Source of the DNA: Acidobacteriota bacterium
Lineage (GTDB): Bacteria > Acidobacteriota > UBA6911
Direction of reading: 5' to 3'
NCBI GenBank assembly: GCA_963664705.1
Contig: OY761556.1
Location: 4,032,001 to 4,096,000, forward strand
Length of the DNA: 64,000 bases
The stretch's first letter is position 1. Each line of letters starts with the position of its first letter. A program made the translations under genes and the position numbers. Shown here piece after piece: positions 13,870 through 41,639 of the stretch. The notes under the pieces are model-generated. The model had not been told where the DNA came from. It did not search any database and saw nothing but the letters and a program-made list of their open reading frames with translations.

Positions 13870-13935
13870 GAAACAACGTGGAAGCGCGGAGGCTCGAAGA
13901 AATACTCCAAGCCTCCGCAAATCGCAAATCCTCAA

Positions 13936-20308: not shown

Positions 20309-20605
20309 TCAGCCGCCGGCTATGGAGCCGATGATCAGAAGCGGTTTCTTTCCCGACACCACATCATTCGGCAACAATACTTCCGGCGGCTCATTCGAGA
20401 AATCCCTTTCGCATGCGTAGAAGCGAATAAATGGACGCCGCTTTTTCGTCACGTGATCGCGAATCGTGCCTCTGAGTACCGGGTAGTGATCCTCGATTGC
20501 ATCCAATGCCGCACTCAATGTCGGCTCTGCATCGAGTTCAAACGACAACATCTCTCCCGTACGAGAAAGCTCTCGCAAATGAAACGGGAGCACCACTTTT
20601 ATCAT
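20309..20605 (-). CDS. MoaD/ThiS-family ubiquitin-like sulfur-carrier protein
   Basis: Beta-grasp pattern (VVLPFHLR...YPVLRGTIRD...RRPFIRFY) ending in IAGG. Confidence 0.88.
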   Translation of the reverse strand: MIKVVLPFHLRELSRTGEMLSFELDAEPTLSAALDAIEDHYPVLRGTIRDHVTKKRRPFIRFYACERDFSNEPPEVLLPNDVVSGKKPLLIIGSIAGG

Positions 20606-20616
20606 CGCATCCCCTC

Positions 20617-21780
20617 TCAGTTGAGTGTTTGCGCTTCCACGGAAAGCACGGGAGGCAAATCCCTCACAACCGCTGTCCAGTCATCGCCGGCATTGGAGGA
20701 CACATACAATTGCCCGCCAGTGGTTCCAAAATAAACCCCGCAAGGATCCAGTGAATCGACGGACATAGCTTCACGCAATACATTCACATAGCAGTCGCGC
20801 TGCGGCAGACCATTGGAAAGAGCTTCCCATTCATTGCCGCCGCTCCGACTTCGGTACACCCGCAGCTTTCCTTCGGGCGGATAATGCAGAGAATCGCTGG
20901 TGATGGGGACAACATAAATCGTATTCGGTTCATGCGCATGAATCTCGATGGGAAAACCGAAATCGGTGGGAAGGTTCCCACTGATTTCGTGCCACGATTC
21001 GCCGGCATCATCACTCCGGTTCACATCCCAGTGCTTCTGCATGAACAATACATTCGGACGGGATGGGTGCATGGCAATCCGATGCACGCAATGCCCCACA
21101 TCCGAAGTGGAATCCGCAAGTTCGTAAGCCGACCTCAGGCCACGGTTTATCGGCCGCCATGTCTCTCCCCCATCATCGGTGCGAAAAACGCCGGCAGCGG
21201 AAATTGCCACGTAGAACCGTCGGGGATTGACGGGATCGAACACAATAGAATGCAACCCCATGCCGCCTGCACCCGGCTGCCACAAATGTCCCTTCGCGCC
21301 ACGCAATCCGGGCAACTCCTGCCATGAGCACCCACCGTCCGAACTTCGGAACAATGCGGCATCTTCGACTCCGGCATAGACAACATCCGGATTATTCAAT
21401 GAAGGCTCGAGGTGCCAGACCCGTTTGAACTCCCACGGCCGAGCCGTTCCGTCATACCACAGGTGGGTTCCGACCTCTCCTTCGTATAAAAACTTATTGC
21501 TTTCGATTTTGGGCATCCCGCCATCGGAAGTGATTCGATTCCCGGCTGGCGGATCCCAGTGCTTCCCACCATCCTCGGAGCGCTGAATGATCTGCCCAAA
21601 CCATCCACTCGTTTGCGAAGCATAGATCCTGTCAGGATTCACCGGAGACCCTTTGACGTGGTAGATTTCCCAGCCTCCAAAATGAGGCCCATCGACATGC
21701 CATTCTTTGCGGCTTCCATCGGATGTCAGAATGAACGCACCCTTTCGTGTGCCGACCAGTACTCGAACTTGGCTCATCAT
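20617..21780 (-). CDS. BNR/Asp-box repeat beta-propeller protein (sialidase/WD40-YVTN-like)
   Basis: Starts [10 protein letters not shown]; repeated Asp boxes ([54 protein letters not shown]). Confidence 0.88.
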
Positions 21781-21996
21781 CCACCCCCTTCCTGAAATAT
21801 ACCGCCGTCTTGCACTTTCGAACAGAGTTTGCCGGAGTGCCGGTTCGACAGAATGGCGCGTCAAGCAGCCGCTGGAAACCATCCGTAAATTGGGTGGATT
21901 ATTTTTGCTGATTTCGCTACTGGAAGAGGATTCCTGATATAATCCGGGAAATTTTCACACAGAAATTTATATTCCATTGCACGGAGGAACCATAAA

Positions 21997-23730
21997 ATGG
22001 CGGGTCGTAGACTGAAGATGGTACCGATCCTTGCTCTTGTGTTTTCTGCACTGTCCTTCGCACTGCCATGGGCCGGCAAGGACGGCTCAATCGATGTTAC
22101 GGTGGTGGACACAGGCAACCGCCCCATTGGTGGCGCTACAGTTGTACTCCAGGGACCGATGCAAGTCAGAACCGTGTCCAACAGTGTCCCCGTTCCTGCT
22201 CAAATCATGATGCCACCCGAAACCAACGCCACGACAGACACGAGCGGCCATGCAACATTTCAAGGCCTCGCTTCGGGGCAATATAGCCTGCGAGTTCAAA
22301 AAGACGGATATGTTGGATCCGCAACCCCAAGAAATACCAGCTTGCCTTCGTTCGTTTTGACGACGGTCTTCATACAGGAAGGCCAGGCTCCTCAGCAGAT
22401 GGAGTTGACTCTCGAACGAGGAGCCACCATCAGCGGAAAAATCTCCAACTCAAAGGGATCTCCGGTGGCAAACGCGCGAGTATATGCGGGGGTAGTGGGC
22501 TTTCAGAATGGCCGCCGGACGTTTCAGTCACATGCATCCGCACAGACAGATGATCGAGGCGATTTCCGGCTCTTCTGGTTCGGTCCGGGCGAATATTACA
22601 TCGTATGCGAATGGATGCAGCGGTCCGGCCCCGTCATGGCACCCGATTTTGTCCGAACGTTCTACCCTGGAACAACCGAATTTGAAAAATCGAAACCGGT
22701 ACGTATCACGGGCACAGATGCAGCCGGAATCAACTTCAAAGTGCAGAATATGAAAACCTATCGCATTCACGGCAAGGTGATCGATCTGCCCTCATCCCCC
22801 ACAGGTTCCCGCATGTTGCCTACATTTACACTTGCAGCACGCGATTCGAACGAATTGGATATGCCCACATCGTCTTCACCCCCCAGCCGAATGAACTTTG
22901 AAACCGGGGAATTCGAGCTTATGGGTGTCGCGCCCGGGTCCTGGACTCTTTTCGCAACTTTGATTCAGCCCAATGTTCGAAGCGATCCAGGGCGACCCAA
23001 TATGCCCCAATACCTCGGCGGACGTGTCTCTATCGACGTACGCGATAAGGATGTTAACGATCTGCAAATTGCAATGTTTTCCGTAAATATTAAGGGGAAG
23101 GTGATTTTTCCGAAATCCGGCACCGCGATTTTCTCTGGCCTGCCGATCCAATACATACGGGTCAGCCTGCAGCCGCGCGAAGGAATTCCATCCTTCGTTT
23201 ATGGAGCAACGCAATCTGCGCCCATAAGTAATGAAGGGGACTTTACTTTTCCCGGCGTACCGCCAGGCAGATACGGCATTTCCATCTCGGCTCCCGGGAC
23301 CATTGAGGACATACAGGTCGGCTCCAAAAGCATCATGAACGATGGCATCATCAACGTTGGAGCGGAGTCCCCCGACTTTATTAAGATCATTCTTGCAGAA
23401 AGAACGAGTGGAATTTCAGGTTTGGTTACCGGAATCAGCCCCAGTACAACAGTCGAACAACTGTGGTCAACACGTGTCGTGCTGGTTCCCGATCCACCAA
23501 GACGGCAGAATACTATACTCTACCGATCCGTCGAGCTTTCAGGCATGCGCGGTAATTTTTTCATCAGTTCCGTTCCTCCGGGCAGCTATAAGATCTTTGC
23601 CGTGGAAGGACTGCAGCAGGGAGCCGAACTGGATCCGGCATTTATTGCCCGCTATGAGAATCGCGGAGTCACGATCCATGTTTCGGACCAGGGGGTTAAT
23701 TCAATACAAGTCCGATGGATTCGAAAATAG
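21997..23730 (+). CDS. Secreted protein with repeated carboxypeptidase-regulatory-like (CnaB/transthyretin-fold) domains
   Basis: GGAGG RBS and signal peptide; repeats TTDTSGHATFQGLASGQY, TDDRGDFRLFWFGPGEY, EGDFTFPGVPPGRY, GNFFISSVPPGSYKI. Confidence 0.85.
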   Translation: MAGRRLKMVPILALVFSALSFALPWAGKDGSIDVTVVDTGNRPIGGATVVLQGPMQVRTVSNSVPVPAQIMMPPETNATTDTSGHATFQGLASGQYSLRVQKDGYVGSATPRNTSLPSFVLTTVFIQEGQAPQQMELTLERGATISGKISNSKGSPVANARVYAGVVGFQNGRRTFQSHASAQTDDRGDFRLFWFGPGEYYIVCEWMQRSGPVMAPDFVRTFYPGTTEFEKSKPVRITGTDAAGINFKVQNMKTYRIHGKVIDLPSSPTGSRMLPTFTLAARDSNELDMPTSSSPPSRMNFETGEFELMGVAPGSWTLFATLIQPNVRSDPGRPNMPQYLGGRVSIDVRDKDVNDLQIAMFSVNIKGKVIFPKSGTAIFSGLPIQYIRVSLQPREGIPSFVYGATQSAPISNEGDFTFPGVPPGRYGISISAPGTIEDIQVGSKSIMNDGIINVGAESPDFIKIILAERTSGISGLVTGISPSTTVEQLWSTRVVLVPDPPRRQNTILYRSVELSGMRGNFFISSVPPGSYKIFAVEGLQQGAELDPAFIARYENRGVTIHVSDQGVNSIQVRWIRK

Positions 23731-23766
23731 GGTACAATCCGGCAAACAACTTCGGAGGCGGCAACA

Positions 23767-26166
23767 GTGGACTATCGACCATGGACGTGGAAGGTGCCGG
23801 AAAACGGCGCGGAATTGAGTCGGACCATGACTCGGCAGGATGCGTTTGAACGAGTCAGCGGCCAGGCGGTCTTTACTCGAGATGTACAACTCCCCGGAAT
23901 GCTGTATGCCAAGATACTTCTCTCCCCATACGCCAGCGCAAGAATCAAGAGCATCGACACCAGCAGGGCTCTGGCTCTTGTAGGCGTTCGCGACATACTC
24001 AAGTATGACGATCCGGATATTGCCTTCGACAACGAAAACGGGCCGTACTTCGAAGTGTCCCGCAATTACAATATCCTGACCTTGCCGGGAACCGCGGATT
24101 TCTTCGAACACCCGATGGGCGCAGTTGTCGTGGCCGATAGCGAAGAAATTTGCGATCGCGCGCTCCGGCTATTAAAAATCGATTGGGTGGAAACGCCGTT
24201 CATCCTTGATATGGCGGAATCGCTCAAGCCGGATGCACCCAAAGTCATGCCGGAAGTAAAGCGGCTGAATCCGAAAGCCCAGGAACCTAACACTATTCTG
24301 ACTGACAGATCTGAAATTGGGAATGTGGAGCAGGGCTTTTCGGAGGCGGATAAGGTCGTCGATTACACGATTACGCGCGCCAGGAACACCACTGCCGGAG
24401 TCGAACCGATTGTATGCGTTGCCCAGTGGAGGGGCGAATTCCTGGATTTGTGGGTTCACCACCAGGACCTTCCCCAGGCGGTACTGACAACTCCGAATAC
24501 CATCCGTGAAAAAGCACTGCCGCCCGTTGCGGATTGGACCAAGATTACGGTTACCATGCCTTACCAGGGTTCCTGGTTCGGCGGATTTTCATGGCTGGCG
24601 TACTCCTATGCTTTCGTGCGGCTTGCCGCCATTGTTGCGAAGAGAGCCGGCGGAAAGCCCGTAAAGCTGCTCTGGGATGAAAGCGGCTATTATTGCGGCG
24701 GCGACGATGCCGGCATCTATAAATGCAAAGTCGGCGCCAAAAAGGACGGGACTATTACAGCCCTTCATTGGCACATGCAGGGAATCCGGAACCCTGCCGT
24801 CGAGAAGACGCACGTCAGCACAAAGATCCCGAACATCCTGGGAACCCAGGAGTGGGCTCTGATCAACAAGGGACACAATATGTGCTTCCGGCATGGTGCC
24901 CATACATGCGTTCCGCACAATGTCATGTTTGATCGCGTGGCAGCGGAAATGGGTCTGGACCCAACTCTGGTGGCACTGAAAAACGACGGATGCAATGGAC
25001 ATGACTGGGATTGGGTGACGCGCTACCAGAAAGAAAACAGTTTCCCTGAAAGATGGAGCCTGAAGGAAGTAATCGAGAAAGGGAAAAAGGCTATCGACTG
25101 GGACAGGAAATGGCACGCCCCCGGGACAAAGAAACTCTCAAACGGGAAGATGCACGGCATGGGATTCATCCACGTAAACGAATGGCACTGGCATGCTCCC
25201 ATACCGGGCATCTCATTCGCGTGCGTGGCATTGCGCGAAGGCAAAGCTGCCATTATTGCGGTCCGCTGCGATATGGGAATCGATACGGAGTCGAGCGCCC
25301 GTTTGAGTGTGGCGTCAGAAATCGGACTGAAATACGAGGATACCGTTATCCAGGAACGCCGGTCCGACAACAGCAATTTTCACTTCTGGCAGCCCGGAGG
25401 CTCTTTCGGAACAAATTACATCACGACGCAGCTCATCCTGGCCGCAAGGGAAATCAGGAAAAAGCTTCTGGAATATGCAACCAAGCCCAAGCCTGCGGTG
25501 TTCCTGACTCCGTCACAATCCGCACCATTCCCGAATCTGAAGCCGGAAGAGCTCGATATTAAAGACAGTGTGATTTTTGAAAAAGCCAATCCCCAAAACA
25601 GGCGAACGGTGCGTGAAGTAGCGGATCCCTGGTGGGTTCTTGATCCACCTATATCCCATCCCGTGGCAGGAAACCTGTACGGGCTGACCGTCGACGGCAA
25701 ACCGGATCCGGAAATGTATGCAATGGCCCGGCAAGCCCACTTTATTGAAGTCGAAGTCGACACCGAAACCGGAATGGTGGATGTAACCCAAGTCGTCTGC
25801 GTCAATGACGTGGGACATCTCTTCAACCGCAAAGGAGCGGAAGCGCAACAATACGGCGGTTCCGTCATGGGGCTCAGCCGGAGTGCCATGGAAGAGCATG
25901 TGTTCTGCCCGCGAACCGGAGTTGCGCTGAATTACGATCTGGTCGGTTATCACATTGGGACAATGAACGACTACCCATCGGCGCAATGTCTGATTAACGA
26001 GAGCCACCTGGGATACGCCGCCTATGGTTCCTACGGAATCGGGGAAAACATCGGCGCCAGCATGTCGGGAGTCACCACCCCTGCCATTTTCAATGCGACC
26101 GGCAAGTGGGTACTGGACTATCCGACAACTCCCGATCGTGTCCTGAAGGCTCTGGGCAGAATTTAG
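23767..26166 (+). CDS. Xanthine dehydrogenase-family molybdopterin-binding (large) subunit
   Basis: GTG start after GGAGG. Motifs: RQDAFERVSGQAVFTRDV.LPGMLYAKILLSPYASARI, AHFIEVEVDTETG, QQYGGSVMGLS, YGIGE (catalytic Glu position), AIFNATG...PTTPDRVLKAL. Confidence 0.92.
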   Translation: MDYRPWTWKVPENGAELSRTMTRQDAFERVSGQAVFTRDVQLPGMLYAKILLSPYASARIKSIDTSRALALVGVRDILKYDDPDIAFDNENGPYFEVSRNYNILTLPGTADFFEHPMGAVVVADSEEICDRALRLLKIDWVETPFILDMAESLKPDAPKVMPEVKRLNPKAQEPNTILTDRSEIGNVEQGFSEADKVVDYTITRARNTTAGVEPIVCVAQWRGEFLDLWVHHQDLPQAVLTTPNTIREKALPPVADWTKITVTMPYQGSWFGGFSWLAYSYAFVRLAAIVAKRAGGKPVKLLWDESGYYCGGDDAGIYKCKVGAKKDGTITALHWHMQGIRNPAVEKTHVSTKIPNILGTQEWALINKGHNMCFRHGAHTCVPHNVMFDRVAAEMGLDPTLVALKNDGCNGHDWDWVTRYQKENSFPERWSLKEVIEKGKKAIDWDRKWHAPGTKKLSNGKMHGMGFIHVNEWHWHAPIPGISFACVALREGKAAIIAVRCDMGIDTESSARLSVASEIGLKYEDTVIQERRSDNSNFHFWQPGGSFGTNYITTQLILAAREIRKKLLEYATKPKPAVFLTPSQSAPFPNLKPEELDIKDSVIFEKANPQNRRTVREVADPWWVLDPPISHPVAGNLYGLTVDGKPDPEMYAMARQAHFIEVEVDTETGMVDVTQVVCVNDVGHLFNRKGAEAQQYGGSVMGLSRSAMEEHVFCPRTGVALNYDLVGYHIGTMNDYPSAQCLINESHLGYAAYGSYGIGENIGASMSGVTTPAIFNATGKWVLDYPTTPDRVLKALGRI

Positions 26167-26268
26167 GAGCTCAGGATTTCGCCGCGGATTTGCTGGCTCT
26201 TTGGGACGGGAAGCATTATTGATACCAATAGCTGACGGCACATCCCATTGGCGTTGAGAGGTTGTTCA

Positions 26269-28101
26269 ATGAAACCTGATCCGGAGATATCGAGAAGGAG
26301 TTTCCTCAAAGAGAGCAGTTCCGCCATCGGCGGTGCGGCGCTATCTGGAGCCGCGGCTGCGGCCGAAGCTGCGCCGGGCGCCAAACTCACGCTTCTGGAC
26401 CCCACCGGCGCGCAGGAAATCACGCATCTTTTCGCCCCGCGCCTGCCAGACCTGAATGGCAAAATCATCGCGGAACTGGCTGTGGATCCTACAAAATGGC
26501 AGCCTCACCGGACAATGCCATATATTGAAGAGCTCCTGAAGAAGCAATTCCCTTCCATCCGGTTCATCCCCATGCAGGAATTCCCAATGGGGATTCAAAT
26601 CAGCGAGGACAGGGTTATTCAGCTGGTGGCGGCAAAGAAGCCGGATGCCGTTATTATCGGCAACGCGGGTTGAGGGTCGTGCGCTGCCGCCAGCGGAGGT
26701 GCCGCTGCAAAACTGGAAAAACTCGGAATTCCCACCGTCATCATTCAACGCAAGGAGTTGATGGCCGCCACACGTCAGGCCATTATGGGCCAAGGACTCC
26801 CGGCCGAAGCACCCTGGGTTGTATTTGAATACCCGTTATTCCTTGTCGACAGCGATCTGAGCCCGATCAAGGGAAAATACTCTGAGATTGTGCATGCCCT
26901 GACTCAATGGCAGCCTCAAAACAATAGGAAAGGAATTTACAATAAAGCACCCGTGGAAGTTACGGGAAAGGACTATGAGGATGCGCTGGCAAAGGCCAAT
27001 TACCTGTTCCTGAAGAAAAACTGGAGTGACGGGCTAGCCCTTTTTCCGCCCACTCGAAACCGCGTGAACTGGATACTGACGGGAACGGATCATAGCCCGG
27101 ACGAGAAGGTCGGCGGAGGATCCGGAAAGGTGGCGCCCAAGGAGGGCATCCTCACCTATGAAGTTCTTGCGACCTGTATGGCGATGGCCGGAGGGCGCCC
27201 GGAATATATGCCGGTGGCTGAAGCCGTGTGCAAGACTATCGTCGAGAAACAGAATACGCTGATGACCAGTTCTGGTGGGGCTTATCAGGGAATCTGCGTC
27301 AATGGGTCCGTGGCAAAACAGATTCGCTTGAATTCCCGCTTCAGTCTTTTCGGCCCAAATCCAAACCATCCGGCAGGCGGAGCCATCGGCCGGTGCATTT
27401 CGCTTGTACTGATGAATGTCGGCGGTCATGTGGCCGGACAGGGAACTATTGCGGAATACGGGGAAATGCGCTTCACCGGTCTGTGTTTTGCGGAAAACGA
27501 GGAGAGTCTTCCCAAAGGCTGGTCCACATTCACGGAAGACAAATACAAACGCCCCAAGGGCACCAATTCGGCAACCTTTTTCATCACCTTCCTGGGCGGC
27601 CTGCGTCCTTTTGTACACAGGGGCTCGGGAGATGAACCGAATTTCGAAACCGAAATGAAGGAGAGCTTCTTCCGGGCGGCCGCCGTAATGAAAAATATCT
27701 GGACGACAAGCCACAGCGCAACTCCCGGCTCCCCCGGCATCATGTTCTACAATTCAATGATTTGCGGCAATATGGCAAAGATCGGATGGACGAAGGAAAA
27801 GATCCGGGCCCATCTGGCGGAAGTTCTTTTTGCGACTGCGGAGGAAATAAAGGACCGGACGGATGTGCAGCGATCTGCGGCCGCACTGAAGGTCGATATG
27901 TCCAATTTGCCACCGCGAATCCCCTTGATGACCGACTCCAGAAACATCAATTTTATTTGCGCCGGCGGAGACCATCCTTCACTGGCCATGTGGCTGGCTG
28001 GCGTCACCTTTCTGGGAAATACGGAGATCCAGTTGCCCGGGAATTGGGAGGCGTTACTTGCACAAGCCGAGCAGGACCTGGGGCCGATTCCTGTGTTGTG
28101 A
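26269..28101 (+). CDS. UGSC-family selenoprotein with Tat signal, fused to a C-terminal 'WSDGL..PPT' domain; in-frame UGA at 26671-26673 read as Sec (residue 135 of 610)
   Basis: Track ORFs 26248-26673 and 26758-28101 share a frame (offset 510 = 170 codons). The only interruption is the TGA in GGC AAC GCG GGT TGA GGG TCG TGC = GNAG-U-GSC, continuing AAASGGAAAKLEKLGIPTV. The N-terminus MKPDPEISRRSFLK...AEA is a Tat signal. Confidence 0.88.
26674..26709 (+). promoter_or_regulatory. Candidate bacterial SECIS element
   Basis: Hairpin CAGCGG-AGGTG-CCGCTG at 26691-26707. The apical loop starts 23 nt after the UGA and has G at its second position, fitting the general bacterial SECIS model. Confidence 0.7.
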
Positions 28102-28171
28102 CAAAGGTCCCGGGAATACTCGAGCCGGATCACACTTTTTCGTCAGCTTTGAATACCCAGGCCTGCAGCGT

Positions 28172-28199
28172 GAAGGGGGCAGCGAATGCTGCCCCCTTC
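28172..28199. terminator. Hairpin between convergent genes
   Basis: Perfect 12-bp stem GAAGGGGGCAGC / GCTGCCCCCTTC with a GAAT loop. Confidence 0.7.
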
Positions 28200-28203
28200 C
28201 TGC

Positions 28204-31200
28204 CTAAAACTGGAACTTAAGGACTGCCTGTCCCTGGCGCGCTCCGGAAGGATTGGCGGTATTGATGTACCCGAATCCACCGGTCGGCTTGCCGCTGGTA
28301 TCCCTCGTCTGCGTGGACAGCGCATTTGTCGATGAGGGTCCGGGAACATTCGTGCGGTTGAAAATATTCTGAAAGTCAATTCTCAGGCTGATTTTCATCC
28401 CTTCCCTGAAATGGAAGATCCGCTCAATATTCATGCTCTCGGCGGGCACTCGCCTTGACCGGTAGTCGTCGTAATACACGGCCCCGGTTCCAAACGTGCC
28501 TGGTGCAGGGTCGGACCATGCAGCAGGATTCAGGACGAAGTCCTTGTTCGGATCAAAGCAAGTCGTACAGTTGATATCCTTTGTCCAGAGCGGCTGGCCG
28601 GGAACGCGGTTCGCATAGGTGCTCATATAAAGCACCGAAGAGAGCGCATTCTGAGCAACCGGCGCCGCTATCGGCGTTCCGCTTGCATACTGAACCATAG
28701 CTCCAACCGTCCAGCCGCTGATGGCAAGCGAGAGAGGTTTATAAATGTTCAATTTGGGAAGTCGATAGTTCCCAGCAAACATGAACACGAAGGGCCGGGA
28801 GAATGACGACAGATACTTGTTGGTTCTGCGGTCAAAAACATTGTTCACCGCTCCGCCGCCGGTCCCGCCGGTTTCGTTTTCGGAGCCCATCATGAGCTCC
28901 TTTGCCCAGGTAAATGTGGAGGTGAAGTCGAAGCCATGGGAAAACCGTTTGCTGGCCTTTACCTGCAGCGCGTCATACCAGGTTCTGCCAAGTGGAGCCC
29001 AACGATAGGTAATGTTGCCGTACTGCGGGAATGGTCGCAAGGACTGGGCCAAAGTCTGGGTCATAAGGAATCCCGAATAAGGCGCTTTAAATCCGCGAGC
29101 CTGAACCGCAGCGCTACTCAGGGCCGAGGTCAGCAGGTCACGATCAGTCTTCAGCGTGACATCCAGTCCCTTGCTTTGCAGATATTCCGGAGTCAGCGCA
29201 TTGACGTTGATCAGATTTCCATTGACCCACCAGGCGCCACGGTTGCCGACATAGGAGACTTCGATCGCCAGGTCTTTATAGATCTCCCGCTGGATGCCAA
29301 TGCTCCACTGGATCTGCCGCGGCGGCCTTCCGGCATTTCCGTCGACGGCGGAAACCGCCTGGGCTGCCTTGTTCGGAATTACAAACAGGCCCGCATCATA
29401 TACCGGCCACATGCCCGGAGTCGGAGGGCCATCCTGAAGCAGCATCGCCGCAGTTCCGCTGCCCGTAGGTGCGCTGAATGGATTGTTGGATCCGTTCCCC
29501 AAAGAGGTCCGGTTTTCATTTGCGGTTTGTCCGTAGGCAATGCCCCAGCCTGCGCGCAGAACGGTTTTGGGAAGGAACTGATAAGCAATCCCCAGCCGTG
29601 GCCCGAAGGCAAACGGATAATTCCTGCCGAACCTCACATCATTTCTTTCAAAGATCATGGCTCCTAGAAGGCCACCGGCATTGGGATTCGCCGTCGTTGG
29701 AGAAAAGCTCGGAATGCGACCGTACGTATCGTGCAAATATGTCTGATAGTCGTATCGCAGACCATAATCCAATGTCAGCTTGCGGGTCACCTTCCAGCTG
29801 TCCTGTGCAAAGAATGCCCAGGACTGCTTGCCCTGCCGCACCGCACTCGGAACCCCTATGTTGCCGTTGTCCACCATGCCAAGAAGGAAGCTGGCATAGG
29901 CAAACCCAATCGATCCCCCGGCCAATTGCGAGCTTTTCCCGAAAGTCGAGGGGAGCCCGGTCTGGCTGGTGGAAAAATTGTAAACACCATAGGAATTGTC
30001 CAACATAATGGTCGGAAATCCGTCCAATCTCATTTCCGCGCCAAATTTGAGAGTGTGGTTGGATTTGACCCAGGTGAAACTGGCAGCCGCCTCCGGCCGT
30101 TCCATATGTGAATCGCTTTGTGTTGTCGGGCCGGCCGCAGCGCCCAATCTTGTTCCCAGCCCTCCTCGAGTCGTACTGGCCGTTCCACCCAGTACTGGGA
30201 ATCGATTGCTATAGGATCCTTTGAGGCCGAGTTCTTTCAGCTGATCGAATTCCGGAAGAACATAATCCGGCCAGACAGAGCCATGAAAGCCAATCTGCAA
30301 ATGCAGGAGCTTCGTCGGGGACAGAGTCTGATCAAAACTCAACCGCAGCGTTTTGGAGTTTGTGTTGGTGGGCCGGAAATTGGTCAGAGGGGTTTTTATC
30401 CCGTCATCGCCCCCTCGAGCCACTCCTTCAAAACTCGCGCCGTACGCCGATATTTTGGAATGAGCACTGATGTACCAGTCAAGCTTTGCGGATGGAACGT
30501 TCTGATGGCCAGGATAGGGCCATGGATCCAAATAGTTATTGATTAGTTTGGTCTGATCCGTTGCGTGCGGGATAAATCGGTCCTGAACGATACGTGCAAC
30601 CGTGTCAAACCGCTCTACCGGAATCTGATTATTCACGAACATATCCCGGTATCCCGCGATGCCGTTTACCGTGCGGGTTGTTGCCGGATCATATAGCTGG
30701 CCTTCTTTGATCGTACGCCCGAAATCGTCCATGCCGAGTGTCTTGCCGGTGTAGGCTTCGCTGAAATCACCGTTGCGCATTTTGTCGGTGGGCATCGTCC
30801 ACGAAGTATTGACCATCTGAGTTCTACGCGAGGCTTCAAAATTCACAAAAAAGTACATCTTCTTCTGCCGCCCGTCCCAAAGTCCCGGGATAGTGACAGG
30901 GCCGCCGACATTAAAGCCTGGAACAAACACTCTGCTCTTTGCCTTGATGCCGGTATAGGGCTGCGCTGAGTTCAATTTTTCATGGTTCCAGTACAGGTAC
31001 GCGCTGCCATGATATTCGCTGGTGCCCGACTTGGTGGTCATGTTAACGATCCCGCCGCCCGCCTGCCCGTACTCTGCTGAATAATTGCTGGTCAAGATCG
31101 TCACTTCTTCAAGTGCATCCACGCTCGGTTGAGAGTCTTTTGTGGTCCCAATGGAAGTTGCATTGTTCGCTTCCATGCCTTCCACTCTCATGGATTGCGT

Positions 31201-31743
31201 AAAGTTTGGCGCCCCGTTCACACGGAAGATAGCCATCTGGGTAACGCTGGTTCCGGGGATCAATCTCCCTGCAGCCAATGGGTCGCGAACCCACTGGTTG
31301 AAGCCGACGACGGGGAGATCATCGAGCTTCTTTGTGCTGACGTTGTGGCTTATCTCCCCACTCTCGGTTCTCAGCAGTGTCGCATCGGCTTCAACCGTCA
31401 CAACCTCGGCAAGATTCCCCACTTCAAGGGGAAGATCAATACGCAGGGTTTGCGACCCGATCACCGTAATTCCGGTCCGGACATACTGCTTGAATCCCTG
31501 GACTGTGGCAGTCAACTGGTACGCGCCCGCGGGAAGCTCCGACAGCGTATAGTTCCCGGTTTCGCTGCTCGCAGCCCGGTATTTTGCACCGGTCTCCACG
31601 TTGGAAGCTTCTATGGTGGCATTGGGGATTACCGCCCCCGCAGGATCAAGAACTGTTCCCGTAATAGCACCCCTCGTGCTCTGAGCGAAGGCAAACCCGG
31701 CCATCAGGAGCAGACAACAGGCCGAAAGGATCACTGAACGCAT
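28204..31743 (-). CDS. TonB-dependent receptor, Oar-like with N-terminal carboxypeptidase-regulatory-like domain
   Basis: Signal peptide; GAITGTVLDPAGAVIP, SAEYGQAGGGIVNMTTKSGT, FAQDSWKVTRKLTLDYGLRYD, PRLGIAYQ; C-terminal LKFQF. Confidence 0.93.
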   Translation of the reverse strand: MRSVILSACCLLLMAGFAFAQSTRGAITGTVLDPAGAVIPNATIEASNVETGAKYRAASSETGNYTLSELPAGAYQLTATVQGFKQYVRTGITVIGSQTLRIDLPLEVGNLAEVVTVEADATLLRTESGEISHNVSTKKLDDLPVVGFNQWVRDPLAAGRLIPGTSVTQMAIFRVNGAPNFTQSMRVEGMEANNATSIGTTKDSQPSVDALEEVTILTSNYSAEYGQAGGGIVNMTTKSGTSEYHGSAYLYWNHEKLNSAQPYTGIKAKSRVFVPGFNVGGPVTIPGLWDGRQKKMYFFVNFEASRRTQMVNTSWTMPTDKMRNGDFSEAYTGKTLGMDDFGRTIKEGQLYDPATTRTVNGIAGYRDMFVNNQIPVERFDTVARIVQDRFIPHATDQTKLINNYLDPWPYPGHQNVPSAKLDWYISAHSKISAYGASFEGVARGGDDGIKTPLTNFRPTNTNSKTLRLSFDQTLSPTKLLHLQIGFHGSVWPDYVLPEFDQLKELGLKGSYSNRFPVLGGTASTTRGGLGTRLGAAAGPTTQSDSHMERPEAAASFTWVKSNHTLKFGAEMRLDGFPTIMLDNSYGVYNFSTSQTGLPSTFGKSSQLAGGSIGFAYASFLLGMVDNGNIGVPSAVRQGKQSWAFFAQDSWKVTRKLTLDYGLRYDYQTYLHDTYGRIPSFSPTTANPNAGGLLGAMIFERNDVRFGRNYPFAFGPRLGIAYQFLPKTVLRAGWGIAYGQTANENRTSLGNGSNNPFSAPTGSGTAAMLLQDGPPTPGMWPVYDAGLFVIPNKAAQAVSAVDGNAGRPPRQIQWSIGIQREIYKDLAIEVSYVGNRGAWWVNGNLINVNALTPEYLQSKGLDVTLKTDRDLLTSALSSAAVQARGFKAPYSGFLMTQTLAQSLRPFPQYGNITYRWAPLGRTWYDALQVKASKRFSHGFDFTSTFTWAKELMMGSENETGGTGGGAVNNVFDRRTNKYLSSFSRPFVFMFAGNYRLPKLNIYKPLSLAISGWTVGAMVQYASGTPIAAPVAQNALSSVLYMSTYANRVPGQPLWTKDINCTTCFDPNKDFVLNPAAWSDPAPGTFGTGAVYYDDYRSRRVPAESMNIERIFHFREGMKISLRIDFQNIFNRTNVPGPSSTNALSTQTRDTSGKPTGGFGYINTANPSGARQGQAVLKFQF

Positions 31744-31960
31744 GTGTTACATCCTCCTCTTTACCGAATTGGACTTTGGTTTATATGACATTGGTCAAGG
31801 TACAGGCATTGATAGCATGGACGGCGGCGGCCAATCATTTTGCTGCGGTACAATTTCTGTCCAATTTCCGTCAGAGGCACAGTGCTATAATGCCCCGGAT
31901 AATTTTCAGCAGAGCTTTGATCGGTGCCAGGCGGAATAACCGCTATCTTGCATACAGGCC

Positions 31961-34885
31961 ATGGAAAAACTCGAGCCGATTACGTTCGATCTGTTTACGA
32001 TTGACCCCACTAGCGAATCGCTCTGGCGGGGAAATGAGAGAATCCATCTGCGGCCGAAATCGTTTGCCTTTCTACAATATCTTGTAATGCATCCCGGCCA
32101 GATGATTACCAAGGAACGATTGCTGAATGCCCTCTGGAAAGATTGCTTTGTCGGCGATGGAGCGCTAAAAAACTGCGTAGCCGAGATACGTCGAGTGCTT
32201 GGAGACCCGGCAGAGACTCCCAAGTATATTGAAACGGCGCATCGCAGGGGTTATCGCTTCATAGGCAAGATGGACCACCCTCCCGCAAACGGAGATCCGG
32301 GTACCGGCTCGATCCCTGCAAATACTGCGCACGGTGGTTCAACCACGAGGCTGGTCGGAAGAGCATCCGAATTGGCACGGTTGCAGCAACTGCTTGAAAC
32401 ATCGAAGAACGGAATTCGTCAGGTTGCCTTCGTCACCGGCGAACAGGGCATTGGAAAGACAACTCTGATCGACGCATTTCTCAAATCCTTGGACAATGGT
32501 ATTTGGATCGCGCGCGGACAATGCATCAAGACACATGGAGCCGGCGAATCCTATATGCCATTCGCGGAAGCATTCACCGGGCTCTGCGACAACTCCAAGC
32601 GCAAGACCATTGTTTCCACGCTGGGCCATCACGCCCCCCTGTGGCTGATACAGATGCCTTCGCTGGTCAGCGCCGCTCAACTGCGAGCCCTTCGCCGCAC
32701 CACCTCTGGCGCCTCGCGCGAACGCTTGTTGCGGGAGATGGCTGAAGCGCTCGAGGCGTTAACGGCAGAGATGCCTCTAATCCTGGTGTTGGAAGATTTG
32801 CATTGGAGCGACTACTCCACGCTTGATCTAATTTCCTATTGGTCACAGCGCCGGTCGGCGTCCCGGCTGCTGTTGATCGGAACCTACCGTCTGGCCGAAA
32901 CAATGACCGGCGATCATCCTTTAAGGAGGATCACACAGGAGCTAAAAGCGCACAATCTCTGCCAGGAGGTGTCCCTGGCATTTCTCCCCGAAAGCGCAGT
33001 CAGGGAATATATATCGCATGAATTTCCAGATCATAGTTTCCCATCAGAGATGGCAACGTGGATTCATCGCAGGACCGAAGGCAGTCCATTGTTCATGATC
33101 AACCTCCTGGAACATCTGGTGTCGCGCGGGTTGATCGTAAAACGGGATGGATCGTGGATTCTGGATACTCCCCTGGAAAGAGCGGAACTCGAGGTTCCTC
33201 CCACCATTCAACAGATCATTGAACAGCAATTTGAACGTTGCAGCCGAGAGGAACAACACCTTCTGCAAGTGGCAAGCGTAGCCGGATCAGATTTTTCGGC
33301 CAGTGCAGTGGCTGCCATCGCGGGAGAAAAACCGGAGCGGGTCGAATTGCGCTGCAGGAGCCTTGCCAGGCGACAGCTCTTTCTGCTGCCCTCCGTCATC
33401 CGCACCACTTCAGGAGGAAAGCGTGAGGCCCGGTACAGCTTCAGTCATGTGCTTTACCAGAATATCTGCTATCAGCTTCTAACCGAGACCCGGCGTGCCC
33501 AGCTTCATCAGCGGGTTGCTGAACAAATCGAGCAGATGACCACCAGCCAGTCCGGAGACTTCGCAGCGCGGCTCGCCGCGCATTTCGACCTGGGGCGGAA
33601 AACCAAAAAAGCGGTTCAGTATTATGAAAAAGCAGCCGCTAACGCCAACTGGAGATACGCGGGACGAGAGACGCAGGAACTTGCGGAGCGGGGATTGCAG
33701 CTGTTGGAAACCATTCCGGCTACAACAGAAAGATGCAAGATCGAGCTCAGCCTGCAGATTGCGCTGGGATCCTCGCTGCTGGCCACCAAGGGGCTTGTCT
33801 CCCCGGAAATGAAACGGGCCTTTGACCGGGCCATGGACCTTTTCCGGCAACTGGACCAGCGGCGCAGTTCCGGCAATACTCCGCTTTTCTTCTCCGCGCT
33901 GTGGGGACTCTGGAACTACAGCTGGATCCGCGCGGACTATGTCGCCGCCCGGGAAACTGCCGAGCGATTGTATCAGCTGGCGCAAAAGGAAAGGGATCCA
34001 TCGATCCTGACTCAAGCCCATTATGCTCTCGGCATCATCCTGATGGATCACGGAGAATTCGCGGAAGCCCTTCAGCACCTGAATCAGTGCCCCACTGTGG
34101 TAAGCCGAATTTATGGAGCTTGGACGATGTGGAACCTGGGCTACCCTGACCGGGCCATAAAATCGCTCGAAGATACATTGGCTCGTTCCATGGCAATGAA
34201 AGATACGGAAGGCAGTATCTTCAGCGATGTCGCACTGGCGCGCGTCCATGCAGCCCGGAGGGAGAACCAAAAAGCGCTGGATCATGCGCAAAGCGCACTC
34301 CAGACTGCCCGCCAAAACGGTTTCCCGAAACAATGGCTCGCACCCTGGCAAGTCATCCTGGGGTGGGCAATGGTTAAACTGGGGCGTGGGCGTGAAGGGA
34401 TTGATGAAGCCAACCAGGCTCTGGCCGCACACCGGGAGATTGGATCCACCAACATCACACCCTATGTGCTGGCCCTGTTCGGCGAAATTCTTGGAGATGC
34501 GGGAAGACCTCACGATGGGATAGCCGCAATCGATGAAGCTCTGGATGTCTCCGCCAAGACGGGGCTGATTTACCATGAGGCCGAAATCCACCGCCTTCGA
34601 GGAGAACTGCTCCTCCGGAAAATGATTTCGGGAAAAAAGGGCTCCCTTCACAGCCGCGGATTATCGGATGTCGAAGCCCATTTTAAAAAGTCCATTCGAA
34701 TTGCCCGCAGGCAGCAGGCGAAATCCATTGAACTCCGCGCCGCAGTAAGCATGGCCAAGCTGTGGGAGCATACGGACCGGAGACAAAAAGGCCGGCAACA
34801 ATTACAGGAGGTATACGAATGGTTCAAGGAGGGATTTGAAACTGCCGATTTGCAGGATGCCCGCAATCTGCTTGGCAGGTTATAA
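31961..34885 (+). CDS. OmpR-type winged-helix + AAA (STAND-like) ATPase + TPR-like transcriptional regulator
   Basis: Trans_reg_C motif (LRPKSFAFLQYLV...YIETAHRRGYRF), Walker A GEQGIGKT, Walker B LVLEDLHW, and the C-terminal ARRQQAKSIELRAA...WFKEGFETADL tail typical of this family. Confidence 0.9.
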   Translation: MEKLEPITFDLFTIDPTSESLWRGNERIHLRPKSFAFLQYLVMHPGQMITKERLLNALWKDCFVGDGALKNCVAEIRRVLGDPAETPKYIETAHRRGYRFIGKMDHPPANGDPGTGSIPANTAHGGSTTRLVGRASELARLQQLLETSKNGIRQVAFVTGEQGIGKTTLIDAFLKSLDNGIWIARGQCIKTHGAGESYMPFAEAFTGLCDNSKRKTIVSTLGHHAPLWLIQMPSLVSAAQLRALRRTTSGASRERLLREMAEALEALTAEMPLILVLEDLHWSDYSTLDLISYWSQRRSASRLLLIGTYRLAETMTGDHPLRRITQELKAHNLCQEVSLAFLPESAVREYISHEFPDHSFPSEMATWIHRRTEGSPLFMINLLEHLVSRGLIVKRDGSWILDTPLERAELEVPPTIQQIIEQQFERCSREEQHLLQVASVAGSDFSASAVAAIAGEKPERVELRCRSLARRQLFLLPSVIRTTSGGKREARYSFSHVLYQNICYQLLTETRRAQLHQRVAEQIEQMTTSQSGDFAARLAAHFDLGRKTKKAVQYYEKAAANANWRYAGRETQELAERGLQLLETIPATTERCKIELSLQIALGSSLLATKGLVSPEMKRAFDRAMDLFRQLDQRRSSGNTPLFFSALWGLWNYSWIRADYVAARETAERLYQLAQKERDPSILTQAHYALGIILMDHGEFAEALQHLNQCPTVVSRIYGAWTMWNLGYPDRAIKSLEDTLARSMAMKDTEGSIFSDVALARVHAARRENQKALDHAQSALQTARQNGFPKQWLAPWQVILGWAMVKLGRGREGIDEANQALAAHREIGSTNITPYVLALFGEILGDAGRPHDGIAAIDEALDVSAKTGLIYHEAEIHRLRGELLLRKMISGKKGSLHSRGLSDVEAHFKKSIRIARRQQAKSIELRAAVSMAKLWEHTDRRQKGRQQLQEVYEWFKEGFETADLQDARNLLGRL

Positions 34886-34923
34886 AAATAGTCGGTAGCC
34901 AGGGGGGCCTGGCTACCGACTAT
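34884..34923 (-). terminator. Rho-independent terminator (probably bidirectional)
   Basis: Perfect 16-bp stem ATAGTCGGTAGCCAGG / CCTGGCTACCGACTAT, with an A-tract on the left, between convergent genes. Confidence 0.8.
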
Positions 34924-34939
34924 CCGCTCATGCCGAAAG

Positions 34940-35236
34940 CTACAGCATCGTGATTTTCCCCGTATCTTTGTTTTTCCAGTATCCCCGCAGTGCCAGCGGC
35001 CAATTGAACTCGAGCGCCCCTGGAGTGGGACAGTCATTGGCACAGCAGCCGCAATACCAGCATTCTTCCGGATGAAGAATGATCGGCGGTTTACCCTTCA
35101 CAGGGTGAGGAATGTAGACATCGATCTGGCATGTTTCTACACAGGTGTTGCACCCGATGCAGACGTCCGGATTGAATCGCACCGGACTGTTCGGGGTATT
35201 GATGTTTGGAATTGCAAATATTTTTGCATCTGCCAC
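34940..35236 (-). CDS. 2x[4Fe-4S] ferredoxin, AprB-like
   Basis: CIGCNTCVETCQ and PEECWYCGCCANDCP; GTG start after GGGAGG. Confidence 0.9.
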   Translation of the reverse strand: MADAKIFAIPNINTPNSPVRFNPDVCIGCNTCVETCQIDVYIPHPVKGKPPIILHPEECWYCGCCANDCPTPGALEFNWPLALRGYWKNKDTGKITML

Positions 35237-35247
35237 GGTAGCCTCCC

Positions 35248-37194
35248 TTATTTGCCTTGATACACACCGGTGTAGTCTTTGTTATGAGCCTCGTAATTTT
35301 CCTTCATATTGCCCCAGAAGTTCTGGGGCCTCGCTCCGGTTTTCACCTTGTCGTTTTCCAGTTTGATGGTGAGGAACTTGTCCCACTCCGGCGGATCGAT
35401 CGTCGGAAAATCAATTCTCTGGAAATTCAAAGGCATACTGCTGGCTTTGCGTGCAAGCGATGAGTAGATGATGATCTTCGCAAATTCCAGCATGCTGAGA
35501 TCTTCCATCGTACGCATCAGCTTATGCGGATCCAGGGCAAACAAGGACGGGACCTCTTCCTTTTCGATTTTCTCCAGAGCGCTCAGCCCCATGTTGAACA
35601 GGCGCTCCGTTTTGAATTCGCTGACGTAATACTGCATGACTTTGGCAAGGCCGGAGTGCAGCTCTTTCCACTCTATCCCGCCGCTCCGCTTGACCGGGGC
35701 AAAAACCCTGGCTTTCTCTTTTTCGATCTGGTCGCGCGAGATTTTGGAGGGGCCGACCTCTTTGGCATAAGCAGCCGCCTTGCGCCCGGCATAACGTCCG
35801 GTGGAGGCCGCGTGGCTATGATCTTCAGGAGCAAACATCTGCGTGCCGGCGGCATACAGTCCTTCAAGTGTAGTTCGCAGGTTCCAGTCGACCAGGAGCC
35901 CGCCGCCGTACCCGACATCACGCCACTGCGGCATGCTCTGGCCTTCGATGAACTTGTAGCTCTGAAGCAGATCTTTACTGATATCAAAGCCAGCCTTGTT
36001 GTAGGTGTCGATGATGACGCGCGTCGTGGATTCCTCACCCAGCATCAAATTCCAGGTAGCCCGTCTCTCAACGTCAGGCATGGCGGGAAAATCCCCATAA
36101 AACGGGAGTTCATATTCGCCCTTCATGATGCCCTCGCGGATTTTTGCTTCAACTCCGGGGGCAGGAACCATGGCGCCGGCATCCACCCATCCCTGGATCG
36201 GATAGGGCAACCTTTTGCCGTTCGCATCCACAAGCGGAACATTTTCGTAGCTGGCATCGCCGGCGCCGCTGTACCACTTGTGCTTGAGACCGGTGGCGAT
36301 CATGATCATTCCGGTCCCTTCCATCTTGGTCAGCTCTGCACCCGCTCGCCACGCCATGATGGTACCGTCTCCGGACATAGTCCGGGAGTGCATGCTCGAA
36401 TAGCCGCCCAATTCCATACTCATGAGCCAGAGCGAACCGCCGCCGGCAGCGGAAAGGATGGTCGCCTTGGATTTGAAAATCATGAATTCACCGGTTCGGC
36501 TGTTGAGACCCGTCGCACCGACCACGCGCCCACCTTGGATCCCATTTTCGGTCAGAAGGCTCGTGCCCATCACGCGATCAAAGATTTTCACGCCCAGGCG
36601 TTTGCATTCCTTCTTCAAAGCGGGCTTGAAAGTGCTTCCCCACACGCGAATGACGACATTATTCCGCTTTTCAGGCGGATTAAAATTCGGCTCGCCCATA
36701 TGAGGATCGGGCAGATAACTGTGAATCGTGCCGTAGCGGGGAGAGATCATGAACTTGGTTTTGTCATCGCGGCCCTCGGCTCCGGCATATTCATTCTCAA
36801 CATCCCGGATCTTCCCGCCCATCTGCTCCATTTCAAGCAAGGTATCAAAATCCTCGCGGCACTGAATCTGAATGCCGATGCCATTCGAATATGGCCGGGA
36901 GGCCATGTGCTCAGCCCATGCATCGGGAGAAACACGGGACAGCGGATTCGCCGGCGCATCACACCAATGGTCACAACCCGGTCCGCCTGCGCCGCTGCGG
37001 ACGGTGTCCCCCTTCTCAACTAATGCCACGCGCAATCCTTGCCTCGCTGCGTTGATTGCAGCCCAGCAGCCGGCAATGCCTCCGCCGACGACCAGAACAT
37101 CCGTGTCGATTTCCTGCTCCTCGCCGAACCGGACAGGATAGGGCCAACTGGGCGGCCGACCTTCTTCTTTTAAATAATCATGCCACGTAGTCAT
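35248..37194 (-). CDS. FAD-dependent oxidoreductase of the AprA/SdhA/NadB superfamily (AprA-like, function unknown)
   Basis: Rossmann motif DVLVVGGGIAG...VEKG; GDGTIMAWRAGAEL, TTLEGLYAAG and the helical C-terminal SSLARKASS. Paired with an AprB-like ferredoxin. Confidence 0.88.
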   Translation of the reverse strand: MTTWHDYLKEEGRPPSWPYPVRFGEEQEIDTDVLVVGGGIAGCWAAINAARQGLRVALVEKGDTVRSGAGGPGCDHWCDAPANPLSRVSPDAWAEHMASRPYSNGIGIQIQCREDFDTLLEMEQMGGKIRDVENEYAGAEGRDDKTKFMISPRYGTIHSYLPDPHMGEPNFNPPEKRNNVVIRVWGSTFKPALKKECKRLGVKIFDRVMGTSLLTENGIQGGRVVGATGLNSRTGEFMIFKSKATILSAAGGGSLWLMSMELGGYSSMHSRTMSGDGTIMAWRAGAELTKMEGTGMIMIATGLKHKWYSGAGDASYENVPLVDANGKRLPYPIQGWVDAGAMVPAPGVEAKIREGIMKGEYELPFYGDFPAMPDVERRATWNLMLGEESTTRVIIDTYNKAGFDISKDLLQSYKFIEGQSMPQWRDVGYGGGLLVDWNLRTTLEGLYAAGTQMFAPEDHSHAASTGRYAGRKAAAYAKEVGPSKISRDQIEKEKARVFAPVKRSGGIEWKELHSGLAKVMQYYVSEFKTERLFNMGLSALEKIEKEEVPSLFALDPHKLMRTMEDLSMLEFAKIIIYSSLARKASSMPLNFQRIDFPTIDPPEWDKFLTIKLENDKVKTGARPQNFWGNMKENYEAHNKDYTGVYQGK

Positions 37195-40685: not shown

Positions 40686-41639
40686 ATGAAACGTGTTGGA
40701 ATCATTCCGGTCATCGCAGTGGCCATGCTGCTGTTTACCGCCGCCGGCAATGCCGCCCCAAATGTGGACTGTAATCGTCAATGTCTGGCAGGTTTCATGA
40801 CAACCTATCTCAATGCCGTGGTCGCCCACAATGCCTCCAAATTGCCGGTTACGAAAAACGTGAAATATACGGAAAACGGTGTGCGGCTAAACCTGAATGA
40901 TGGGCTGTGGCAGACAGCATCGGCACTGCCGACATACCGCGTCGATGTTCTGGATGAAGAGGCCGGCCAGGTCGGGCTGCTTGGCAGAATTAATGAAAAT
41001 GGAAACAACAACTGGTTCGCCGTGCGCCTCAAAGTGGAAATGGGCAAACAGATTTCCGAAATCGAAACCTTGATAGTGCGAAGCCTGAGCAGCGGAATGC
41101 CGGAAGGCACTCCCACCGGGACGATCCACAAAGAAGCTCATCCGCTCATGATGGAAGCCATCCCGGAAGCGAAAAGATCGGCCCGACCGGACCTCATCCG
41201 CATCGGAGACAGCTATTTTACCGGGCTGGATACGGAAGAGAGCGGCAAGAATGTTTCCTTTGACCCGGACTGCCAGCGCCGTGAAAACGGCATGATAACG
41301 TCCAACAACCCCGATGCACCCAAAGGCTCGATGCAATGGATGGGCTGCAAAGCCCAATTTGACACGGGATTCTCCGTTATCGTCACGGATATACGCGAAC
41401 GACGGTTCATTGCGGATCCGGTGACTGGCCTCGCCTTTGGATGGGGATATTTCGACCATGACGGCAGTGTGGCAAAAATGTCCAACACGCCCGACGGCAA
41501 ACTGACCGATGTTGCGCCGACCTTCCGTCAGCCGTTTTCATTCAACATTGCCGAGATTTTCAAAATCAAAGACGGCAAGATTCGACAGATTGAAGCCGTG
41601 CTCGGAACAGTTCCTTACGGCATGTCATCCGGCTGGTGA
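40686..41639 (+). CDS. Secreted hypothetical protein with two tandem NTF2-like repeats
   Basis: AAGGA RBS and signal peptide; internal duplication (YTENG / RRENG; ISEIETL / IRQIEAV). Confidence 0.75.
   Translation: MKRVGIIPVIAVAMLLFTAAGNAAPNVDCNRQCLAGFMTTYLNAVVAHNASKLPVTKNVKYTENGVRLNLNDGLWQTASALPTYRVDVLDEEAGQVGLLGRINENGNNNWFAVRLKVEMGKQISEIETLIVRSLSSGMPEGTPTGTIHKEAHPLMMEAIPEAKRSARPDLIRIGDSYFTGLDTEESGKNVSFDPDCQRRENGMITSNNPDAPKGSMQWMGCKAQFDTGFSVIVTDIRERRFIADPVTGLAFGWGYFDHDGSVAKMSNTPDGKLTDVAPTFRQPFSFNIAEIFKIKDGKIRQIEAVLGTVPYGMSSGW

Follow-up and report, generated by a model that had tools for sequence, protein, structure and literature searches.

We lean towards the view that a 15-kb gene cluster in an acidobacterium of lineage UBA6911 is a mosaic, in which an inherited core of three enzymes has received later insertions, and whose core genes are copies drawn from a shared, paralogue-rich anaerobic toolkit rather than the parts of one dedicated pathway. 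The cluster lies in a stretch of 64,000 nucleotides (the window; C1:4032001-4096000 of the host genome G000, a single contig of 6.89 Mb, 98% complete), and positions below are those of the window unless they carry the prefix of a genome or locus. It comprises genes for a molybdenum (Mo) hydroxylase subunit of the xanthine dehydrogenase (XDH) family, a selenoprotein in which a UGSC-motif domain with a twin-arginine translocation (Tat) signal is fused to a second domain, a TonB-dependent receptor, a STAND regulator, and an AprA-like flavoprotein with its ferredoxin. An initial annotation of this DNA had described all these genes, and all are real and lie at about the places it gave, including the same-strand spacing of about 100 bp between the Mo and UGSC genes, the divergence of receptor and regulator, and the pairing of the flavoprotein with a two-cluster ferredoxin. 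To us, the main interest of the region lies in the expansion of the selenoprotein family and its unmatched domain rather than in the 15-kb cluster. The core genes are as follows.

23767..26166, + strand: Mo-subunit gene (PF01315, PF02738, PF20256)
26269..28101, + strand: gene for the Tat-signal UGSC-fusion selenoprotein, 610 aa, 102 bp 3' of the Mo gene
26671..26673, + strand: in-frame TGA, the putative selenocysteine (Sec) codon, in the context GNAG-U-GSC
26685..26709, + strand: hairpin resembling a selenocysteine insertion sequence (SECIS), its G-first loop 22 nt past the TGA (consensus fold of seven orthologues)
34940..35236, - strand: ferredoxin that pairs with the flavoprotein and has two CxxCxxCxxxC motifs
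35248..37194, - strand: flavoprotein of the AprA/SdhA superfamily, in an unnamed subfamily, without signal peptide

Genes of G000 were called with a dicodon model (5,050 genes), and family labels come from all-against-all BLAST, or were given by eye where no Pfam scan was done. Fifteen congeneric loci with orthologues of the Mo subunit were compared (78-84% identity, flanks of up to 20 kb, five on contigs shorter than 13 kb): a UGSC orthologue lies directly behind the Mo orthologue in three, and an AprA-like orthologue is present in six, always convergent. Across 29 congeners, the Mo orthologue occurs in 21 (three partial), the AprA-like orthologue in 22 and the UGSC orthologue in eight; the last is next to the Mo gene in three of its eight genomes, and in the other five it is on a separate contig, behind other genes. 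A second sample consisted of 80 metagenome loci with UGSC relatives, namely 19 contigs with close orthologues and 61 loci with more distant ones (35-58% identity). The Mo gene is upstream of UGSC in four of the six close-orthologue contigs that include upstream DNA, and in three (L170, L174 and L177) the ferredoxin and AprA-like genes are directly downstream, convergent with UGSC; L177 reads Mo > UGSC >< ferredoxin < AprA-like, with no gene in between. These three contigs lack the window's TonB gene, which has no match above 55% identity across the 29 congeners. Part of the genus thus has a three-gene core, into which the TonB and STAND genes are likely to have been inserted. Outside the genus, Mo orthologues were found with neither UGSC nor AprA-like genes alongside (L076, L088, L161, L164). 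Support for treating the three redox families as a set comes from the recurring core in part of the genus and from co-occurrence at the level of genomes in a second phylum; all five parts together were found at none of the 15 congeneric loci.

The genes that surround or interrupt the core, together with a repeat in the DNA, are the following.

28204..31743, - strand: Oar-type TonB-dependent receptor (PF25183)
31961..34885, + strand: winged-helix/AAA/TPR (STAND) regulator, divergent from the TonB gene
28172..28199, no strand: perfect inverted repeat of 12 bp in the gap where the UGSC and TonB genes converge, found by direct reading
21997..23730, + strand: secreted carboxypeptidase-regulatory-like repeat protein (577 aa), single copy, 36 bp 5' of the Mo gene
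20309..21882, - strand: separate unit of a BNR-repeat protein and a small Gly-Gly-ending (MoaD/ThiS-like) protein

None of these genes (577-aa repeat protein, TonB, STAND, MoaD/BNR) is present at any of the 15 congeneric Mo-orthologue loci. The receptor gene is likely to be a lineage-specific insertion into the core, and the regulator gene likely to be part of the same insertion. The inverted repeat is likely to be a terminator; it is not among the sites listed by a promoter/terminator scan whose yield was at chance level (15 versus 11.8; 23 versus 19.2). The MoaD-like gene, which had been placed just upstream of the Mo gene, is present as an open reading frame (20309-20605) with a C-terminal Gly-Gly, but it is on the opposite strand and 3.1 kb away, behind the BNR-repeat protein. 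Its product has no Pfam match at E<=0.05 and no NCBIfam match at E<=0.1, and a BNR orthologue is close to a UGSC orthologue in 1 of the 80 metagenome loci.

Other window genes include one for a secreted 737-aa protein without a family match (18064-20277), with a 56% orthologue near the Mo orthologue in G024, and, at 12541-15342, one for a radical-SAM protein like the anaerobic sulfatase maturases, convergent with a gene for a Tat sulfatase-like protein (by eye). At 40686-41639 is a gene for a secreted 317-aa protein without a Pfam match; 6 members of a related family of 20 are within 10 kb of UGSC genes (p=0.03).

Neighbour enrichment around the UGSC genes of G000 was assessed by circular shifts (16 families at two distances, raw p values, window copies counted). 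Within 10 kb of UGSC genes are four of the six members of the window's XDH subfamily (p=0.005), three of the six in its TonB subfamily (p=0.04) and both STAND genes (2/2, p=0.016); the AprA-like family is not enriched (1/6, p=0.46), and four control families gave p>=0.44. At 5 kb, 5 of the 15 AOR-like genes (tungsten aldehyde oxidoreductase, AOR, by eye) are near UGSC genes (p=0.005). G000 also has 11 tannase-family and 16 carboxylesterase-like paralogues. Among 17 UGSC loci from 14 UGSC-rich genomes of the Desulfatiglandales class and two congeners (hand-picked, the selection not being blind), UGSC genes adjoin AprA-like, AOR or Mo operons, in pairings that vary.

Such enrichment of the Mo, TonB and STAND families might be expected if the locus were one dedicated 15-kb module, in which a compound imported through the TonB receptor passed to the Mo enzyme, the selenoprotein and also the flavoprotein for processing under STAND control, much as had been proposed. 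A second locus in G000 with Mo paralogues, a UGSC-like gene and two TonB paralogues would fit as well, as would the presence of Mo and TonB paralogues on the same contigs in two other genomes (G006:C29, G043:C12). We nevertheless hold such a module to be quite improbable: its TonB and STAND genes are missing from all 15 orthologous loci, no close TonB orthologue is found among the congeners, the genes are transcribed in four directions, and the core occurs without the receptor and regulator. G000 has 35 genes for UGSC fusions and 23 for XDH-family Mo subunits, besides 6 pairs of AprA-like and ferredoxin genes and some 40 TonB loci, so that the co-location of the parts is partly chance.

Two further groups of UGSC neighbours may be mentioned here. 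L054 (G000:C1:435949-448267, minus strand) holds a second conserved operon, which we count in favour of the toolkit view, with AOR, a UGSC-like gene lacking both Sec and signal, a flavin adenine dinucleotide (FAD) oxidoreductase, a Mo paralogue, a tannase and another Mo paralogue, with two TonB genes opposite; its UGSC-like/FAD/Mo run was found again in at least nine congeneric loci, and the genes hold together more closely here than in the window. A secreted protein of about 190 aa without a Pfam match (L067:4856-5422 and eight paralogues) is encoded no more than 5 kb from a UGSC gene in eight of its nine copies, mostly immediately behind it, and occurs also in the Desulfatiglandales-type loci L108, L153 and L156; it is the best candidate for a UGSC partner.

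The Mo subunit has the hammerhead and both molybdenum-cofactor-binding domains (PF01315, PF02738, PF20256) and no signal peptide, and belongs to an unnamed XDH subfamily with six paralogues in G000; it reaches the cut-off of no named NCBIfam model (best score 219, against 780). At E<=1e-100 the subfamily is found in 24 of 24 congeners and in none of 16 other genomes of the same class. Glu760 is invariant in 37 of 37 sequences and, in alignments, falls on the GE/SE position of both 5y6q and 1rm6; we take it to be the catalytic-position glutamate near the C-terminus, with a role in catalysis. The description of this subunit as 'lone' is right for the locus and wrong for the genome, as partner subunits are encoded elsewhere. 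In ten loci from Desulfatiglandales or related deltaproteobacteria (L076, L087, L088, L101, L102, L108, L115, L116, L118, L121), the Mo gene begins an operon in which a Tat-[2Fe-2S] gene and an FAD-subunit gene follow; G000 has, 290 kb from the window's Mo gene, an orphan Tat-[2Fe-2S] and FAD pair 74-76% identical to those Desulfatiglandales partners (G000:C1:4345218-4346930). The Tat-[2Fe-2S] gene has an apparent frameshift (G000:C1:4346692; L129:10693), likely to be an assembly error since contigs from three public runs, in two studies, have one more base. It is likely, by analogy, that the Mo subunit and this distant pair form a predicted periplasmic trimer like PaoABC, because the signal-less subunits of PaoABC are exported by Tat-bearing PaoA (PMC4273604). 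Four further, near-identical Tat-[2Fe-2S]/FAD pairs are present (G000:C1:67008-68678, 3089406-3091091, 4312849-4314537, 5998590-6002823), two of them with no adjoining Mo gene; they serve a second XDH subfamily of nine copies, which also has a mix-and-match layout. In a quick tree of the Mo paralogues, each of four clades mixes both phyla, so repeated lateral exchange between the phyla seems likely.

A different role for the neighbouring selenoprotein would be as a subunit of the Mo enzyme itself, substituting for the small subunit both as the carrier for export and as the partner in electron transfer. The gap of 102 bp on the same strand, in which the scan found no terminator-like site, is compatible with this, as are the Tat motif, which only this copy has among 31, and its position next to the Mo gene in three of eight genomes and four of six contigs. 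It is most unlikely, in our opinion, in view of the much wider distribution of the Mo orthologue (21 of 29 congeners, against eight for UGSC) and the existence of the conventional Tat-[2Fe-2S]/FAD pair. Moreover, the Tat motif is kept in UGSC orthologues away from the Mo gene, which also led us to reject the idea that the signal tracks adjacency to that gene.

Turning to the selenoprotein, PF24696 spans the TGA (67.4 bits versus 25, positions 2-151 of 172), the TGA is kept in seven of seven orthologues, and motif matches in the 80 metagenome loci have TGA in 68 of 71 cases and Cys in the other three; G000 has two selA and two selB genes over cut-off and two tRNA-Sec calls of 95-99 nt. Recoding of this codon as selenocysteine is therefore well supported at the sequence level. 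The cut-off of the equivalog NF041046 was not reached (44.2 versus 125). Cys homologues of the protein are also known (P0005, P0008). Covariation in the SECIS-like hairpin is weak (term +0.55) and confounded by coding constraint. The sites of the Sec machinery are G000:C1:3072596-3078309, 3461753-3463159, 3657364-3659262 and 6559014-6559112, and one set is clustered, as selB, selA, a 525-aa SelD-like fusion (by eye) and the tRNA gene.

An iterated profile finds 35 UGSC-fusion paralogues in G000, 31 of them with a TGA-coded UxxC; at identity thresholds of 90, 70 and 50%, these 31 form 29, 23 and 7 clusters, respectively. A hydrophobic signal region was seen in 25 of the 31, and a Tat motif in the window copy alone (with start sites picked by the analyst). 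All 24 congeners have UGSC matches, from 9 to at least 41 each, and the 16 other genomes of the class have 0-2. On the Desulfatiglandales side, 61 genomes were compared from the class to which G047 (a Desulfatiglandales record) belongs: 14 have 5-25 matches, five have one and 42 have none; the Mo subfamily was found in 13 of the 61 and the AprA-like subfamily in 12, all within the UGSC-rich 14, with identities of up to 79% and 82%. Since the largest prokaryotic selenoproteome given in a 2022 review (PMC9312934) is of 39 selenoproteins, this one family, if truly recoded throughout, would alone put these genomes near the record.

In the literature searched we found no report of this expansion. 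The main text of a preprint on UBA6911 (10.1101/2021.04.09.439258) makes no mention of selenium, molybdenum, xanthine or TonB, and the text of the BSepDB paper (PMC13326102) is without UGSC or Acidobacteria, though the 57,630 entries of that database may hold these genes. The expansion is easy to miss because gene callers split genes at UGA; a de novo scan of G000 for TGA read-through gave 29 candidates, against 41 for TAG and 23 for TAA, and recovered only 4 known UGSC sites. A second selA was rejected as a requirement for the expansion, just 4 of 29 congeners having two. Near-identical cassettes of UGSC and partner genes at four distant sites (G000:C1:2634034, 3995561, 4764022, 6758471) are apparently the result of recent duplication. 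There are also longer fusions, P0108 and P0117, of 1226 aa (with N-terminal domains of copper amine oxidase) and 845 aa.

The window's UGSC protein consists of a Sec domain, with U135-G-S-C, and a C-terminal domain of about 390 aa (389 residues), and the AlphaFold2 model is confident, with a predicted local distance difference test (pLDDT) value of 95.5 when the whole mature protein is modelled and of 94.9 for the C-terminal domain. Residues 23-182 of the model match parallel alpha/beta domains of Rossmann or flavodoxin-like type, the best, among many ties, being L-fucose isomerase (4c20; Z 10.0, root-mean-square deviation 3.3, 142 aligned residues); no thioredoxin was among the top 50 rows of that search. 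For the C-terminal domain, a wide structural search gave no chain of 48,161 at Z>=5 (best Z 4.9), and Foldseek gave nothing at E<=0.001 for either UGSC model, a likeness to class I fumarate hydratase not being accepted (E 3e-3, TM score about 0.2). A search of PDB sequences with a UGSC profile of 142 rows found nothing below E 0.99, and a protein atlas search returned only UGSC or hypothetical clusters. The modelled C-terminal domain is thus a candidate for a new fold. Substrate is a more probable ligand for it than a metal cluster, to judge from the conserved residues D217, R338, E372 and E374 (P0002 numbering) and the absence of conserved cysteines.

The flavoprotein belongs to a family of six paralogues in G000, each with a ferredoxin gene beside it; homologues at 76-77% identity bear the name Clostridiales. 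Its identification as adenosine 5'-phosphosulfate (APS) reductase was rejected (TIGR02061, 90.4 versus a cut-off of 641.75), and no aprA, dsrA or sat gene is over cut-off in G000 (98% complete). These paralogues could be misread as genes of sulfate reduction.

Several observations weigh against our preferred interpretation and should be considered together. The linkage of Mo and AprA-like genes (6/16 loci) does not exceed background synteny, in which 40 of 174 gene pairs 5-10 kb apart were retained (p=0.14; with a 71% paralogue included, 7/17, p=0.07), and this pair is convergent, so that the core may be inherited gene order only. The 61 more distant UGSC loci are without Mo, TonB, STAND or AprA-like neighbours, and have CoA-transferases, enoyl-CoA hydratases and ABC transporters instead. 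The UGSC-rich 14 genomes probably form a single clade, and four of them were first reached via Mo-subunit loci, so the co-occurrence profile amounts to two lineages rather than 61 tests. The assignment of the partners in trans is built on orthology, and would have six Mo paralogues use one pair. Finally, the resemblance of the UGSC domain to PrdB, on which the chemistry suggested below draws, is weak (probability 37% and 5%), and the protein has no PF07355 match at E<=0.05.

It is possible, as a minority view, that no functional tie exists: inherited order, the shuffling of abundant paralogues and gene swapping across phyla would account for the arrangement, and UGSC proteins would serve general redox maintenance of the envelope. 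The lack of AprA-like enrichment near UGSC genes, the 23% background synteny, the two-lineage profile and an unrelated nitroreductase-like gene that shares the block at 5 of 17 loci all suit this explanation. However, UGSC genes stand beside Mo operons, AprA-like genes and AOR in both phyla, in differing pairings and in same-strand runs (L108, L152, L155), and 23 divergent clusters with a large conserved extra domain exceed housekeeping needs.

If the locus is instead, as we favour, a mosaic drawn from a common toolkit, a scheme may be sketched around the observed gene content, paralogue counts, synteny, co-occurrence and partner pair in trans. The Mo subunit would join the Tat-[2Fe-2S] and FAD subunits encoded 290 kb away, be exported by Tat as in Escherichia coli PaoABC, and oxidize an aldehyde or heteroaromatic compound in the periplasm, with Glu760 as base. 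The UGSC fusion would be a separate periplasmic enzyme, whose selenolate might attack a substrate held by the C-terminal domain and then be freed by the cysteine of UxxC, in a reductive cleavage like that of PrdB/GrdB; UGSC paralogues would differ in substrate, and the signal-less flavoprotein/ferredoxin pair would work in the cytoplasm. It is likely that the UGSC selenoprotein acts outside the inner membrane, beside Mo and flavin enzymes common to two unrelated groups of anaerobes. To judge only from the tannase, esterase and AOR genes nearby, the most probable class of substrate is that of aromatics derived from plants. A broader and more doubtful proposal, offered tentatively, is that UGSC fusions constitute an extensive class of selenium enzymes in the periplasm, with a fold of a new kind, which would use PrdB-like chemistry to cleave bonds between carbon and heteroatoms in organic matter of plant or humic origin. 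They would work together with periplasmic Mo/W oxidoreductases and the AprA-like flavoenzyme as a previously undescribed anaerobic toolkit, which would have passed laterally between the Acidobacteriota of UBA6911 and Desulfatiglandales. The 31 divergent Sec copies, the confident model, the unmatched domain and the recurrent Mo, W and flavin neighbours make the function of UGSC proteins testable.

How do these proteins compare with known systems? In the selenium-dependent Mo hydroxylases (clostridial XDH and nicotinate dehydrogenase), selenium is a labile cofactor, not Sec. The likeness here is one of family, and G000 has three yqeB genes; the link of the Mo subunit to these enzymes, which the initial annotation had drawn, found no support, as TIGR03311 gives 91.7 bits versus a cut-off of 830, and no yqeB is close to the window gene. 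In the 2022 review, selD, yqeB and yqeC are the marker set for such a hydroxylase (PMC9312934). The flavoprotein and its two-cluster ferredoxin resemble AprAB, and the best PDB matches of the flavoprotein are reductases of 3'-phosphoadenosine 5'-phosphosulfate (PAPS) and APS; it differs from AprAB in having six paralogues and, as nearest model, PRK08275 (188 versus 587). PaoABC shares with the predicted trimer its signal-less Mo and FAD subunits and its Tat-bearing [2Fe-2S] subunit (PMC4273604, PMC3958847). The best PDB sequence matches of the Mo subunit are aldehyde oxidase 5y6q, 4-hydroxybenzoyl-CoA reductase 1rm6 and PaoC, but it is below the cut-off of the PaoC model (164 versus 1180 bits), its pterin-side motifs are altered (QGSWFGG, FRHG), and several Mo paralogues, encoded apart, would share a partner pair.

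The UGSC domain has the strand-UxxC-helix-ExxG(I/L)PT arrangement of PrdB/GrdB (PF07355), and its profile aligned U to U with two single PF07355 proteins at pairwise E values of 3.5e-4 and 7e-3; a PF07355 scan of G000 gave no match, its positive control being likewise silent. Unlike PrdB/GrdB, the window protein is predicted to be exported and has a large unrelated C-terminal domain, and no pyruvoyl partner was noticed among UGSC neighbours, no family search having been aimed at one. A close precedent is the UGSC selenoprotein, with its 'Unknown_1' fusion, described by Zhang and Gladyshev (2008; PMC2398784), who called its fold 'likely Trx-like'; PMC1976440 and PMC13188914 likewise treat UGSC and an unknown domain joined to it. 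With the 2008 protein ours shares UxxC, PF24696 across the TGA and fusion to a conserved unknown domain, perhaps 'Unknown_1' itself, and it differs in its 31 Sec copies in one genome, its export signals and its predicted Rossmann/flavodoxin-like fold.

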